A DNA stretch of 64,000 bases, from contig CAWDRG010000009.1 in NCBI GenBank assembly GCA_963804645.1, positions 1,088,001 to 1,152,000 on the forward strand, given 5' to 3'. This stretch comes from an uncultured Bacillota bacterium. Its GTDB lineage: Bacteria > Sysuimicrobiota > Sysuimicrobiia > Sysuimicrobiales > Segetimicrobiaceae. The notes under the pieces were generated by a model. It did not search any database. It had not been told where the DNA came from and saw nothing but the letters and a program-made list of their open reading frames with translations. Positions 813 through 6,132 of this stretch are shown in pieces; the first letter of the stretch is position 1; every line of letters starts with the position of its first letter. The translations under genes and the position numbers were made by a program.

Positions 813-1748
813 ATGGTGACTTCGGCCGGTGAGGGTGTGACCCTGAAGCGCCTCCTCGTCCCCCTGGACGGGTCGCGGCTCGCCGAGTCCGTGATCCCGA
901 TCGTGGTGTCCCTGGCCGCGCACCTCGAAGCCCGCGTCACGCTGCTGTACGTCATGGAACGGCAGACGCCCGCCACGGTGCACGGTGACCGTCACTTGCA
1001 CGGCACCGCGGAGGCCGACGCGTACCTCACGGACCTGTCCGCGCGGATGCTCGCGGCGGGCGTCGTGGCCGACCGCCACGTGCACCCGAACCAAGAAGGC
1101 GACGTCGCCAAGAGCATCGTGGACCACGCCGGCGATCTCGCGGCGGACTTGGTCATTCTCGCCACGCACGGCGGGGGAGGGGCGCGCCGCGTGCTGTTCG
1201 GCAGCGTCGCGCAGCAGGTCCTCCGACGCGGCACGCGGCCGGTGCTGCTCATCCGTCCGCCCGAGACGGCGCCGTCCGCGTCGGCCGCGCCGTTTGACGT
1301 GCGCCGGCTGCTGGTGCCGCTCGACGGGCAGCCCCCCGCGGAAGCCGCGATGCCGTTCGCGGCGACCATCTCCGCGGCGTACGGGGCGGAGGTACTGCTG
1401 GTCCGCGTGGTCCCGACGCTCGCCACCCTCGGCGGCGACCGGGTGAGCGCGGCCCGCCTGACGCCGACCGCGGCCGCGGCGTCGCTGGACTTGGAAGAGG
1501 AAGAGGCGCGCCACTACACCGACACGATGGTGCGCCGGTGGGAGGCGGACCGGCGCCGGGTCACCGCGACGGTCATGCGGGGCGATCCCGCGCAGATCCT
1601 GCTCGACGTCGCCGCGCAGGCGCCGGTCGACATGGTCGTGATGGCCAGCCACGGCCGCGCCGGCCTCGACGCCGTGTTCTCCGGGAGCGTCGCGTCGCGG
1701 CTCGCCGGACGGATCCAGGCGCCGCTGCTGCTCGTCCGGGCGCCGTGA
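813..1748 (+). CDS. Universal stress protein, two tandem USP domains
   Basis: Two LLVPLDG starts and two ATP-binding-type motifs (ATHGGGG...FGSVA; ASHGRAG...SGSVA). GGAG RBS before ATG 813. Confidence 0.92.
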   Translation: MVTSAGEGVTLKRLLVPLDGSRLAESVIPIVVSLAAHLEARVTLLYVMERQTPATVHGDRHLHGTAEADAYLTDLSARMLAAGVVADRHVHPNQEGDVAKSIVDHAGDLAADLVILATHGGGGARRVLFGSVAQQVLRRGTRPVLLIRPPETAPSASAAPFDVRRLLVPLDGQPPAEAAMPFAATISAAYGAEVLLVRVVPTLATLGGDRVSAARLTPTAAAASLDLEEEEARHYTDTMVRRWEADRRRVTATVMRGDPAQILLDVAAQAPVDMVVMASHGRAGLDAVFSGSVASRLAGRIQAPLLLVRAP

Positions 1749-1782: not shown

Positions 1783-1811
1783 TTGACACGGTAGAGCGCC
1801 GGGGCTATACT
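1783..1811 (+). promoter_or_regulatory. Near-consensus sigma70/sigmaA promoter
   Basis: TTGACA at 1783-1788, exactly 17-bp spacer, TATACT at 1806-1811, in an intergenic region of high-GC DNA. Confidence 0.85.
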
Positions 1812-1817
1812 CGTTCA

Positions 1818-1996
1818 AAAGTTCACACCGTGACGTCCGGAACGCACGAGACACGGTCGCATCAGGGAGCCGATCCAGAAGAGACGCAGCAGCCGACGAC
1901 GGAGCGACGCTGGACCACGATCGTGGTACGGGCCGGACGAGCCACGAAGCTCAGCCGGGGAGCGCCAGACGCTCCCGCGCTGGGCTTCTGCGTTTT
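1818..1996 (+). ncRNA. Candidate structured small RNA (~180 nt), possibly Ms1/6S-like
   Basis: Lies between the strong promoter and a terminator hairpin. Long-range pairing of CGTG-A-CGTCCGG (1829-1840) with CCGGACG-AGC-CACG (1933-1946). Internal palindrome ACCACGATCGTGGT (1914-1927). No convincing ORF. Confidence 0.55.
1948..1996 (+). terminator. Intrinsic terminator-like hairpin
   Basis: AGCTCAGC-CGGGGAGCG / CCAGA loop / CGCTCCCG-CGCTGGGCT, followed by TCTGCGTTTT. Confidence 0.65.
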
Positions 1997-2018
1997 GTGT
2001 AACGGCAGCCGACCGGTG

Positions 2019-2044
2019 GGAACGGCGCCGGAGTTCGGCACGTA
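2019..2044 (+). promoter_or_regulatory. Possible ECF-sigma promoter for the prkA operon
   Basis: GGAAC (2019-2023), 17-bp spacer, CGTA (2041-2044). Located downstream of the terminator and upstream of prkA. Confidence 0.3.
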
Positions 2045-2125: not shown

Positions 2126-3790
2126 ATGAGCGAAATCACGACGGTCGAAACTTACGTGGCGGCAAGCCGGCAGAACCCGCGTTTGGCCCGCACCACGCTG
2201 CACTACATCGCGGACATGATCGACTACTTCGGCAAGGCGCGCGTGTTCGAAGGCATCTATGGCATGGACCGGCAGCTGGACGACATCGTGGACTTCTTCC
2301 GCGGGTACGCGATGAGCATGGAGCGCCGGCTCCTGCTCCTCGTGGGGCCGCAGGGGTCCGGCAAGTCGATGACGGTCGACAAGCTGAAGCGGCGGCTCGA
2401 GGAGTACTCGCACAAGCCCGACGGTATCCTGTACGCGGTCGCCGGATGCCCGTTTCACCAGCACCCGTTCGATCTGATCCCGCTGGACGCGCGCGAGGCC
2501 GAGGGCATCTGGTGGCACGAGGAAGCCGTGCCGTGTCCGGTCTGCGAGCGGGCGGTGGCCGCGCGCGGCGACTGGCGGACCGTGTCGGTGCGGCCGCTCC
2601 TGATCTCGGCCCGCGACAAGGTCGGGGTCGCGAAGCACACGCCGACCGACCTGCGCCGGGAAGACATCACCAACTTCGTCGGCAACATCAACTTCGCGAT
2701 GCTGAAGGAGCGCGGCTCGACCTATGATCCCGACGCGTACGATTTCGAGGGCAAGGTCATCTGGGCGAACCGCGGGATCCTGGATTGGACCGAGGTGTTC
2801 AAGAGCCGCCGGCAGCTGCTGTCGCTTCTGCTGGAGCTGATCCAGTCGAAGCGCATCGACCTGGCGAACTTCCCGACCGTCCACGTCGACGAGGTCGTGG
2901 TCGGGCACACGAACTATCCCGAGTACAACGTGTTCCTGTCCGAGGACATCATGGAGCCGCTCCGCGGGCGGATCCACAAAGTGGACTTCCCGTATAATGT
3001 GGACATCGGCGGCGAGATGCGGATTTATCGGGGACTCGTCGAGCGCGCGAACCGCGCCCGCGGGGAGCAGAAGCACGTCCCCGGGGACGTGTACGAGCTC
3101 GCGGCGACTTATGCGATCAAGACGCGGCAGGAGTCCGAGGGACTCCGCGGCCTGTCTCCGCGGTTCTTCGAGGACGCGTTCTCGCTGGCGTACACGCGCG
3201 CCAACCGGTGCATCGACCTCGAGGTGATCACGGACGCGATCGAGCAGACGTTCGCGCACCAGTCGATCAAGGACCTCAACCTCAAGGACCTGCTCAAGCT
3301 GTTCGAGGAGACGAAGGTTGAGTTCATCCACAAGAAGGTCGACGTGATCGTCGAGGAGATCGTGCCGAGCCACTTCTACGATTACGGCCAGAATCTCTAC
3401 CTGAACTACCTCGACGTCGCGGCGCGCAGCGTGCTGGGCGAGGCGATGTCGGACGGCGACAAGGAGCTGCTGGACGACATCGAGGGCGTCCTGGTGCAGA
3501 AGCGGCAGATCAGCCGGCAGGGGCGAATCGCGTTCGAGAACGTCCTGCTGGAACGCCGCGACGAGCTGCGGCGCATGAGCTACCGCGACAACGAGCATCT
3601 CGCCGGCGCGATCAACGAGATCGTGTTTAACAAGATCAAGAACTGCCTGCGGTTGTACGACAAGACCGAGGAGATGGACGCGAAGAGCCGGGACCTGCTC
3701 GACGTGCTGCAGCGCAGCGCGATCGAGGAGCACGGCTACTGCGCGTCGTGCGCCAGCGCGCTGTTCAAGGTCATCGGCCGGAGCTTTTAG
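2126..3790 (+). CDS. prkA: PrkA/YeaG-family AAA+ serine protein kinase
   Basis: Walker A (LLLVGPQGSGKS) and motifs DPDAYDFEG, WANRGILDWTEVFK, VVVGHTNYPEY, GLSPRF. Followed by yeaH and spoVR homologues. Confidence 0.92.
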   Translation: MSEITTVETYVAASRQNPRLARTTLHYIADMIDYFGKARVFEGIYGMDRQLDDIVDFFRGYAMSMERRLLLLVGPQGSGKSMTVDKLKRRLEEYSHKPDGILYAVAGCPFHQHPFDLIPLDAREAEGIWWHEEAVPCPVCERAVAARGDWRTVSVRPLLISARDKVGVAKHTPTDLRREDITNFVGNINFAMLKERGSTYDPDAYDFEGKVIWANRGILDWTEVFKSRRQLLSLLLELIQSKRIDLANFPTVHVDEVVVGHTNYPEYNVFLSEDIMEPLRGRIHKVDFPYNVDIGGEMRIYRGLVERANRARGEQKHVPGDVYELAATYAIKTRQESEGLRGLSPRFFEDAFSLAYTRANRCIDLEVITDAIEQTFAHQSIKDLNLKDLLKLFEETKVEFIHKKVDVIVEEIVPSHFYDYGQNLYLNYLDVAARSVLGEAMSDGDKELLDDIEGVLVQKRQISRQGRIAFENVLLERRDELRRMSYRDNEHLAGAINEIVFNKIKNCLRLYDKTEEMDAKSRDLLDVLQRSAIEEHGYCASCASALFKVIGRSF

Positions 3791-3815: not shown

Positions 3816-4955
3816 ATGAAAATACACCGCGGGCGGATCGCCCAGTACAAGCACGACCAGATGCTGCGGGATTACCTCAAGCAGAACCTCAACGAGCTGA
3901 TCCAGCAGAAGGAACTGATCGTCGACGGCCGGGTGAAGACGCAGATCGCCACCCTGGATCTGCCGACGCTCAAGTTCGGCGAGGAGTCGCAGTTTCTCGC
4001 CCAGGGCGGCGGGAGCGGGGCCGGCGCGGGCGGGGGCGCGGCGGGCGCCGGCGGCGAGCAGGTCCAAGCGCTCGGCGGCCTTCTCGGCGGCGATCACCAC
4101 GGCAAGGAGCTGACGGTCGAGCTGGATTTCGATGAATTCGTCCGGCTCGCGCAGGAGGTGCTGCTGGACGAGCTGCGGCTGCCGACGTTTCGCGAGCCGG
4201 CCCGCGCCGGGGAAGTGGAAAGTCAGGATACCTCGGAGCTCGACGACCTGGAGCGCGTCGGCCTGCGCGCGGATCTCAACCTTGAGGAGACGATGACGCA
4301 GAGCCTGCTGCGCAACGCGCGCGAGCGCGGCCGTCTCGACTACGACGTGGACGTCCAGCAGGACGCGTGGTACTTCGTCGAGGATCCCGCGACGTTCCAA
4401 AACCACCGGTCGGTCGAGATCTACGTGCTCGACATCTCGGGCTCGATGCGGGGCGAGTACCTCGCCCTCGTGCGCAAGACGATCTTCGTCCTCTGGCACT
4501 ACCTGGAGCGCCGTTATCCCACGAACCTCCGCCGGTACGTCGTGTTCCAGGACGTGGCGGAGGAGAAGACGCGCGACGAGTTCTTCTGCGTCGAGTCGAG
4601 CGGCGGGACCCACATCAGCACCGGGTTTCGCAAGGCGGTCGAGCTGCTCCGCGGCGTGACGGAGCACGACAAGTTCCTGTTCATCTTCACCGACGGGGAG
4701 ACAAGCTCGGGCGATTTCGACCTCGCGAAGCGCACGTACGAGGAGGCGCTCGAGGCGTTCGACGTGGTGACCTACGGCCACGTCAACCCCGGCGGCCGGG
4801 GCATCGGCGGGTTCAGCGAGCACGCGCAGGAAGGCGTGAAGACACGCGCCAATGCGGTGTTTGCGAATCTCGTGGATCTGGAGACGATTCGGACCGCGAT
4901 GCGGCAGTTTCTCGAGTTTTTCGACACACGGAAGACCGCCGCGTCGCCGCGTTGA
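3816..4955 (+). CDS. yeaH: YeaH/YhbH (DUF444) vWA-domain protein
   Basis: Gly-rich linker, MIDAS motif LDISGSM, ESSGGTHIST and FTDGET. Position between prkA and spoVR. Confidence 0.88.
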   Translation: MKIHRGRIAQYKHDQMLRDYLKQNLNELIQQKELIVDGRVKTQIATLDLPTLKFGEESQFLAQGGGSGAGAGGGAAGAGGEQVQALGGLLGGDHHGKELTVELDFDEFVRLAQEVLLDELRLPTFREPARAGEVESQDTSELDDLERVGLRADLNLEETMTQSLLRNARERGRLDYDVDVQQDAWYFVEDPATFQNHRSVEIYVLDISGSMRGEYLALVRKTIFVLWHYLERRYPTNLRRYVVFQDVAEEKTRDEFFCVESSGGTHISTGFRKAVELLRGVTEHDKFLFIFTDGETSSGDFDLAKRTYEEALEAFDVVTYGHVNPGGRGIGGFSEHAQEGVKTRANAVFANLVDLETIRTAMRQFLEFFDTRKTAASPR

Positions 4956-4971
4956 TCGGAGGGCCGGGACG

Positions 4972-6132
4972 ATGATGCAGACCGAGTACGACCAGGTCAT
5001 CTCGCGGATCGAGGGCCTGGCGCGCGACCGCGGGCTCGCGTTCGACCCGGTGATCTTCCGGATGACCGACAGCGACGAGATCGCCGAGGTCGCCAGCATG
5101 GGGCTGCCCAACCGCTTCATCCACTGGTACTGGGGCGGCACGTACAAGGAGCTGGTGACGCAGCAGAGCAAGGAAGTATTCACGATTCTCGAGCTGGTGC
5201 TGAACACCGCGCCCTCGCACGCGTTCCTGCGCAGCACGAATACGTACCTGCAAAACGTGCTCGTGATCGCCCACGTGTTCGGCCACGCCGATTTTTTCGC
5301 GAACAACCACTGGTACCGCAAGTCCAACAAGAACATGCTGAACGCGACCGAGCAGCACGCGCGTCTCATCCGGTCGTACGAGGCGCAGTACGGGCAGGAG
5401 CGCATCGAAAAGCTGCTCGACGCGCTGCTGACCGTGGCGACCTCCGTGAACACCTTCGAGCGGAGCCAGCCGGAGCGGCGGAAGCGCCTGATCTACTACC
5501 TCGAGGAGCGGGCGCCGCTCGAGGAGTTCGAGCGCGTGCTGCTGCAGGCGATCCGCGAGGAGGCCGAGTACTTCGACCTAATCCAGCGGACCCACCTGAT
5601 CAACGAGGGATGGGCGACGTTCATCGAGGCCGAGCTGCTGACGCGCCTCTTGACCGCGCGGGAGTGGGCGAGCCTGTCCGTGCAGCTGTGCAATCGGCCG
5701 GCGCCCTACACGATCGGCTATACGCTGTTCAAGCACCTTCGCGACCGGGAGGGGTTTGCGCGCGCGCTCGAGGTCCGGCGGTTTTACGAGGATGTCAGCC
5801 TCATCGACGTCGCGCTGACCGAGGACCTCGTGCGGCGCCTCGACATCTTCGTGTACGATCCGAAGGAGAAGCAGAAGAGCTACGACCTGCAGAAAGTGAA
5901 GGACATGCTGATCACGCAGAAGCTCTACAAGGGCGAACCGCGGGTCGAGGTGGATCCGGCGTCCCAGGGCCGCGATCTCCTGCTCGCGCACATGGACGAG
6001 GACCGCAAGATCGAGTCCAAGCGCATCGGGCTGTTTCTCAAGTCCGTGTACGCGCTCTGGCGCAACCCCGTGAAGCTCCGCGCGAACGGCAAGGTGTATA
6101 CGTACGATCGGCGGGGGCTGTCGTCGACGTAG
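4972..6132 (+). CDS. spoVR: SpoVR/YcgB family protein
   Basis: Motifs GLPNRFIHWYWG, ILELVLN, VIAHVFGHADFFANN and LINEGWA. Confidence 0.92.
   Translation: MMQTEYDQVISRIEGLARDRGLAFDPVIFRMTDSDEIAEVASMGLPNRFIHWYWGGTYKELVTQQSKEVFTILELVLNTAPSHAFLRSTNTYLQNVLVIAHVFGHADFFANNHWYRKSNKNMLNATEQHARLIRSYEAQYGQERIEKLLDALLTVATSVNTFERSQPERRKRLIYYLEERAPLEEFERVLLQAIREEAEYFDLIQRTHLINEGWATFIEAELLTRLLTAREWASLSVQLCNRPAPYTIGYTLFKHLRDREGFARALEVRRFYEDVSLIDVALTEDLVRRLDIFVYDPKEKQKSYDLQKVKDMLITQKLYKGEPRVEVDPASQGRDLLLAHMDEDRKIESKRIGLFLKSVYALWRNPVKLRANGKVYTYDRRGLSST

Follow-up and report, generated by a model that had tools for sequence, protein, structure and literature searches.

The locus described here lies near the beginning of the window, by which we mean the whole stretch of 64,000 nucleotides that was analysed. 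It comprises a tandem universal stress protein (USP) gene, a non-coding region, and prkA followed by a yeaH-like and a spoVR-like gene, all on the same strand (Table 1). PrkA/YeaG, YeaH and SpoVR/YcgB form a widespread starvation and sporulation module. We placed the prkA start codon at ATG 2126 from alignments with relatives. As listed, the reading frames of the yeaH-like and spoVR-like genes overlap by about 100 nt, so the true start of spoVR probably lies downstream of 4852. A 232-aa ORF upstream of USP (58-756) has no Pfam match. PrkA has been reported to act as an ATP-dependent protease (PMC9512850), and yeaG has been connected with the proteolysis that starvation induces (PMC13684143); our literature search found no RNA-level control of the PrkA-YeaH-SpoVR module. 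The genome belongs to an uncultivated phylum variously called CSP1-3, Ca. Sysuimicrobiota or ANGP1 (PMC11604079), and our comparisons drew on 94 genomes of this phylum.

Table 1. Features of the prkA upstream region and its neighbouring genes (positions in the window; promoters, RNA and terminator are predictions).
Feature	Position	Strand	Basis or detail
Tandem USP gene, upstream neighbour, outside the unit	816-1748	+	Pfam
P1, sigma-70-type promoter TTGACA-N17-TATACT	1783-1811	+	11/12 consensus matches
Predicted non-coding RNA, ~183 nt	1818-2000	+	Covariance models, conservation
Conserved 5' end AAAGUUC, initial transcribed sequence starting with A	1818-1827	+	
Closing helix CGUCCGG/CCGGACG	1834-1840/1933-1939	+	MFE and consensus fold
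Conserved core GACGACGGAGCGACGCUGGACCACGAUCGUGGU	1895-1927	+	Alignments
Terminator hairpin, loop CCAGA	1946-1988	+	Outer stem 1946-1955/1979-1988, inner stem 1958-1964/1970-1976
U-rich tail UGCGUUUUGUGU	1989-2000	+	T-run 1993-1996; 7 U in 12 nt
P2, ECF-sigma-type promoter motif GGAAC-N17-CGTA	2019-2044	+	Between terminator and prkA
prkA (AAA_PrkA and PrkA C-terminal domain)	2126-3790	+	Pfam
yeaH-like gene (DUF444)	3816-4955	+	Pfam
spoVR-like gene	4852-6132	+	ORF list, Pfam

The region begins with P1, the sole promoter-like site returned by a promoter scan of positions 1500-2400, where shuffled sequences gave an expectation of 0.0. Its -35 and -10 hexamers, 17 nt apart, are those of a predicted sigma-70-type promoter. 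The 5.3-Mb genome contains no more than four exact copies of this pattern, and a reversed control gave none. Both hexamers and the length of the 17-nt spacer are identical in all 23 genomes of the window's family while the spacer sequence itself differs, which confirms the near-consensus promoter proposed in the initial annotation. Beyond the family, a phylum-wide survey of 40 additional prkA upstream regions (G039 was skipped) found a relaxed form of P1, of the TTGACA-N16-18-YATACT type, 5' of prkA in 39 and the variant TTGGAC-N18-TATACT in the remaining one. As far as sequence can tell, P1 serves prkA as its promoter throughout the phylum, and the RNA and its terminator would accordingly constitute a module inserted between promoter and gene. 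The three other loci of the window's own genome that carry the exact P1 pattern gave no Rfam match. At one of these (L259, contig C6:73854-73882) the identical pattern stands ahead of a greA-like gene, whose leader of about 100 nt contains a GC-rich hairpin and then a U-rich run. The genome may thus have another promoter-proximal terminator unit here.

Transcription from P1 would begin at A1818, 7 nt past the -10 hexamer, and the 3' end would fall in the U-rich tail; AAAGTTC or a near variant occupies the predicted RNA start in 23/23 family genomes. The element is present in one copy in the window's genome, and BLASTN places it upstream of prkA in 6/6 genomes of the window's genus. A covariance model built from seven sequences of the genus (R1) gave full-length matches in 20 of the 23 family genomes, one per genome, all of them directly 5' of prkA and on its strand, weak E-values included. 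A second model, comprising the core and terminator and built from 23 sequences (R2), gave exactly one strong match per genome (E 8e-10 to 7e-20) in every family genome, each upstream of and co-oriented with prkA; the RNA occupies the prkA 5' leader on the coding strand in 23/23, as is expected of an attenuator. The other R2 matches examined (E<=0.1 with full model coverage) were four weak ones in family f4, again all upstream of prkA, and three that we reject as false, one lying inside a 530-aa tRNA-synthetase-like ORF (G064:C22) and two in a context without promoter or terminator (G027 and G089:C13). PrkA was found in 62 of the 94 phylum genomes (a tally that includes G039), and in searches of the phylum genomes with R2 the RNA was never found away from prkA, nor in genomes without it. 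An upstream USP gene is present at only five of the family loci that have 2.5-kb flanks, and at no locus outside the family. By its genomic context the RNA appears to be tied to prkA and not to the upstream USP gene.

The predicted length of the RNA ranges from 165 to 234 nt (median 188) among the 23 family genomes, and core sequence and length are kept across six genera as the flanks diverge. A metagenome scan with the P1/+1 pattern yielded 95 stretches, 80 of which were fetched; the RNA was present in 11 of these 80, six of the 11 being identical to genome copies. Directly adjoining the U-rich tail, the heptamer TGTAACG (1998-2004) is invariant in 7/7 genomes of the genus but not beyond it; possible roles are a binding site or an element upstream of P2. 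The discrete non-coding unit between USP and prkA that the initial annotation had described is thus borne out by conservation, single copy and prkA linkage, and the comparison of syntenic relatives it had suggested found the unit kept in 23/23 family genomes, with a covarying terminator stem. The unit may be described, on these comparisons, as a conserved promoter-to-terminator element with a structured RNA, and the RNA as an uncatalogued family, confined to one phylum, whose kind is familiar: a leader that ends in a terminator, or a small RNA.

In both minimum-free-energy and consensus folds the RNA is predicted to leave its 5' end unpaired and to form a branched domain, with the terminator hairpin standing apart from it on the 3' side. 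Its folding energy is ordinary (z = -1.64, with 12 of 200 shuffles folding equally well), and the case for an RNA is accordingly made by conservation and not by folding energy. Within the genus the closing helix has seven pairs, three with compensatory changes, and the consensus structure, which was derived from the same alignment, is 96% paired there versus 33-46% when the 3' partners are slid. Other genera present different complementary pairs at equivalent places, the series running CGUCCGG/CCGGACG, GCACUGCCGU/GUGGCAGUGC, GCCGUUG/CAACGGC, UUCGCCGC/GCGGCGAA and GUUUGCACCC/GGGUGCGGAU. Taken sequence by sequence, the closing helix exceeds 95% of shuffles in 9 of 23 (22/300 for the window), and its support outside two genera is modest. 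A closing helix had originally been placed at 1829-1840 with 1933-1946; what stands of it is the 7-bp helix inside that range. The inner helices of the 5' domain show hardly any variation.

The best-conserved sequence is the core, with the family consensus GACGGAGCGR-CAUCGGACCA-N5-CGUGG, and it varies even inside the genus (CGCUGGACCA, CACCGAACCA and CAUCCAACCA). A related core (ACGGAGCG...GACCA...YG) recurs in the prkA leaders of families f1, f4 and f2. Within the core a hairpin of the form CCA-N6/7-UGG is paired in 81.5% of cells and weakly supported; it corresponds to the palindrome at 1914-1927 (ACCACGATCGTGGT) that had been picked out from the sequence and is indeed present. Two further elements proposed at that stage are likewise present but fare less well in comparison: the alternative pairing of ACCGTG (1827-1832) with CACGGT (1852-1857) is not kept in the nearest relative, and the purine-rich centre CCAGAAGAGAC (1876-1886) falls within a variable stretch. 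A pairing of the AAAGUUC 5' end with the GGAAC of P2, proposed by RNAalifold, was dropped, since inspection by eye left GUUC/GAAC as the sole part shared by every sequence.

The hairpin at 1946-1988 and its U-rich tail form a predicted intrinsic (Rho-independent) terminator. In the window the hairpin is worth -33.6 kcal/mol (-37.6 over a 60-nt segment), and 23/23 family genomes have one of between -24 and -38 kcal/mol, with five or more U among the 9 nt that follow. The lower stem is 97.3% paired, with compensatory changes in five of eight pairs and a covariation score that 0/500 shuffles reached. These results support the predicted terminator with a T-run ending near 1996 that the initial annotation had recognised, but a simple terminator scan called no terminator, this hairpin included; the miss is attributable to internal loops in the stem and an interrupted U-run. 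Across the family genomes no consistent antiterminator helix was found between the terminator's 5' arm and upstream sequence. The arm pairs upstream with only -2 to -12 kcal/mol, versus -20 to -36 kcal/mol for the terminator, and the partners differ between genomes; the mutually exclusive terminator and antiterminator of an attenuator were, in this comparison, not found.

Promoters of ECF (group IV) sigma factors have a -35 element GGAAC and a -10 element CGT. By that consensus we take P2 to be a predicted ECF-sigma promoter. The motif GGAAC-N17-CGTA has two matches on both strands of the 64 kb, where 0.71 would be expected, and GAAC-N16-18-CGTA recurs between terminator and prkA in 17/20 and 3/3 family genomes; it is absent in G008 and G009, and G018 carries GAAT. 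In genus g6 the motif stands about 25 nt ahead of the ribosome-binding site. The distance from terminator to prkA varies from about 66 to 280 nt in the family, and the spacers of about 270-280 nt in G008 and G009 (L024/L025) contain a direct repeat consisting of two copies of CGTTCGATGCGAAC with flanks. In family f4 a P2-type motif (with CGT[ACT]) lies 40-75 nt upstream of prkA in 11/20 loci. A strongly conserved f4 box, GGGCATGAGAACAGGCA, found about 70-100 nt before prkA (e.g., L102, L113 and L116), looks sigma-54-like at first sight; we rejected the sigma-54 reading of the box, GGGCATGAGAAC, since by eye its GG-to-GC spacing is one base too long, and a -35 region belonging to the putative ECF-type motif is the better interpretation.

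Elsewhere in the phylum, a structured RNA with a terminator precedes prkA in most lineages, often together with an ECF-type promoter. The P1-to-prkA leader measures 16 to 522 nt in the further loci, and in 26/39 it contains a terminator by thresholds set in this analysis. The leaders of other families are only partly alignable and very different in length, so that any function deduced from them applies to the window's family indirectly. Comparison of 11 prkA leaders of other families with Rfam gave no match at E<=1. In six genomes (G063, G065, G066, G033, G034 and G035) the terminator ends 14-40 nt ahead of the prkA start, a gap that leaves no room for another promoter, and prkA would there be reached only by read-through. 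The position of the ECF-type motif relative to the RNA module also differs: it follows the terminator in f1 and f4, and in f2 it comes just after P1, 5' of the core and terminator, so that in those lineages too prkA would be expressed only by read-through. In two short-leader f2 genomes the motif lies 38-39 nt before the start codon. One locus (L100, in G066) has two tandem terminator hairpins.

Evidence of expression is thin and comes from one study of peat, four metatranscriptome runs of which were compared as contigs; such contigs show neither transcript ends nor strand. A 151-nt contig covers 1850-2000 at >=99% identity, and other contigs at the same identity cover five pieces of prkA. Coverage leaves out 1500-1849 and 2001-2092, and no read or contig bridges the terminator.

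We consider the best explanation, with a probability of about 0.5, to be that the RNA acts as an attenuator in the promoter-proximal leader of prkA-yeaH-spoVR, with read-through depending on a factor. P1, as a near-consensus housekeeping-type promoter, would start transcription at about A1818, and the nascent RNA would fold its 5' domain, with the closing helix drawn around the variable region and the core. The GC-rich hairpin and U-rich tail would then stop most transcripts at about 1996-2000 and release an RNA of about 183 nt, and part of the polymerases would read through into prkA. A factor, which might be a small molecule or a protein, would bind or otherwise recognise the conserved core and so set the fraction reading through; we invoke it since the search for a competing antiterminator helix found none. 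In the window's family P2, lying 3' of the terminator, would supply prkA with a stress input of its own. The motifs and their conservation, the prkA linkage, the covarying terminator stem and the lack of coding potential or of a known RNA family are observations; where transcription starts and stops, that read-through is regulated, and by what factor, we infer. Three observations favour the attenuator leader: the RNA was never found without prkA, P1 is the predicted universal promoter of prkA, and in several lineages prkA would be transcribed by read-through only. It gains further support from G064, G036 and G037 (L098, L123 and L126), where P1 lies 16-64 nt from the prkA start and the RNA/terminator module is missing. 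Against it, the 5' domain and terminator are predicted to be structurally independent, as in many small RNAs, the closing helix is modestly supported outside two genera, and prkA in the window's family has P2 of its own and lies at a variable distance from the terminator. An attenuating leader had figured in the initial annotation as a fallback; prkA linkage and the read-through lineages now make it the preferred reading, albeit one without the antiterminator it would ordinarily imply.

The most serious competitor, which we regard as possible but do not favour, is a free-standing small RNA: an abundant product of about 183 nt acting in trans, with prkA in the window's family transcribed only from P2 and the prkA linkage reflecting shared function or inherited gene order. 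It would account for a unit that has its own near-consensus promoter and strong predicted terminator, a 5' domain independent of that terminator and no detectable antiterminator. The position of P2 downstream of the terminator in 20/23 family genomes and the variable spacer to prkA mean that the P1-to-terminator unit could stand alone. The contig ending exactly at 2000 points the same way, although as a single read-length contig it is a very weak hint. What argues against independence is that the RNA was met neither away from prkA nor in prkA-less genomes, that it offers no long conserved single-stranded seed and has a core that varies within the genus, and that other lineages in which prkA needs read-through have this promoter too, together with a terminator and a related core. 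By eye, neither conserved complementarity to the prkA 5' region nor a trans-acting seed was seen. The leader and the free-standing small RNA could also both be true at once.

It is improbable, in our view, that the region has no RNA function, the hairpin being a USP terminator or an insulator that shields P2 and the intervening sequence a spacer. In favour of this explanation, no terminator was found between the USP stop (1748) and P1, and USP transcripts therefore probably also end at 1946-2000. The unit is nevertheless kept where the upstream USP is absent, the core and an RNA length of 165-234 nt are conserved across six genera against diverging flanks, and a spacer would have no need of a consensus promoter kept without change.

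An RNA-polymerase-binding RNA of the 6S or Ms1 type, the identity first proposed for this element, now seems very improbable. The likeness consists in the size class (about 183 nt), a strong promoter and the adjacency of stationary-phase or stress genes, and to this may be added that no 6S was found in the window's own genome, either with RF00013 (0 matches at E<=10) or by BLASTN with the 6S-like RNA of the genus-mate G011 (0 matches). However, an Rfam scan of 1600-2300 at E<=10 with all families returned only noise (sR16, E 0.49, in the prkA start region), with no match that would speak for Ms1, and the whole window gave nothing at gathering score. The predicted fold is not the 6S rod, with its paired 5' and 3' ends and large central bubble, and strict prkA linkage is foreign to both 6S and Ms1; for Ms1, moreover, the host lineage is not actinobacterial. 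Canonical 6S (RF00013) is found elsewhere in 67/94 phylum genomes (63 above the curated cut-off; the tally includes G039 and G047) and at other loci in 15/22 family relatives that also carry the prkA RNA, which argues that the latter is not the 6S of the lineage. RF00013 was not found in the window's own genome (G000) or in 5/6 genus-mates, and the 6S of this genus is either divergent or unassembled.

The 71-aa ORF at 1830-2045, named in the initial annotation as the competing possibility and present in the ORF list, has a negligible chance of being a small protein gene, given that it is not kept at protein level, has no Pfam match and shows (by eye) no Shine-Dalgarno before GTG 1830, that the longest ORF of the closest relative (87% DNA identity) is 40 aa with a different start, and that homologous stretches fall in different frames of an alignment with 1-2-nt indels; the roughly 180 nt do appear to lack a credible ORF, as was originally observed.

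A bolder extension of the attenuator leader, which we offer as speculation and think unlikely, would cast the core as the sensing part of a novel antitermination switch, either riboswitch-like or dependent on a protein, that gates PrkA-YeaH-SpoVR across the phylum. As a module the switch could change place, standing upstream of the ECF-type promoter in f1 and f4 and downstream of it in f2, and some lineages would have lost it. It would release a stable RNA of about 183 nt, which might have a second role in trans. The combination of a phylum-wide invariant consensus promoter, an RNA with terminator and an ECF-type promoter suggests a testable two-input model for switching the module on, and the core provides a defined RNA that may be probed for a ligand or protein. 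The phylum that keeps this arrangement of prkA promoter and RNA is uncultivated and comes from soil and hot springs.

Several known systems resemble parts of this arrangement. Promoter-proximal terminated leaders, such as the greA leader of E. coli with GraL, produce a short RNA together with a read-through mRNA. The prkA unit resembles the greA leader in that a strong promoter is followed by a structured leader of short length and, ahead of the gene, by a predicted intrinsic terminator, with a short RNA as the predicted by-product; it differs in the gene concerned, in having no sequence similarity to that leader, in its conserved core and in the ECF-type promoter downstream. Like transcriptional riboswitches and protein-dependent attenuators, the RNA occupies a 5' leader on the strand of the gene and comprises, by prediction, a helix-closed domain and a subsequent intrinsic terminator, with conserved core nucleotides adjoining the 3' strand of the closing helix; unlike them, it has no mutually exclusive antiterminator that we could find, matches no Rfam class and lies at a long distance from its gene, a distance that holds another promoter. 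P2 for its part resembles ECF promoters in its GGAAC and CGTA elements at 16-18 nt and in its conserved position before prkA, a likeness of motif that concerns P2 and not the RNA.
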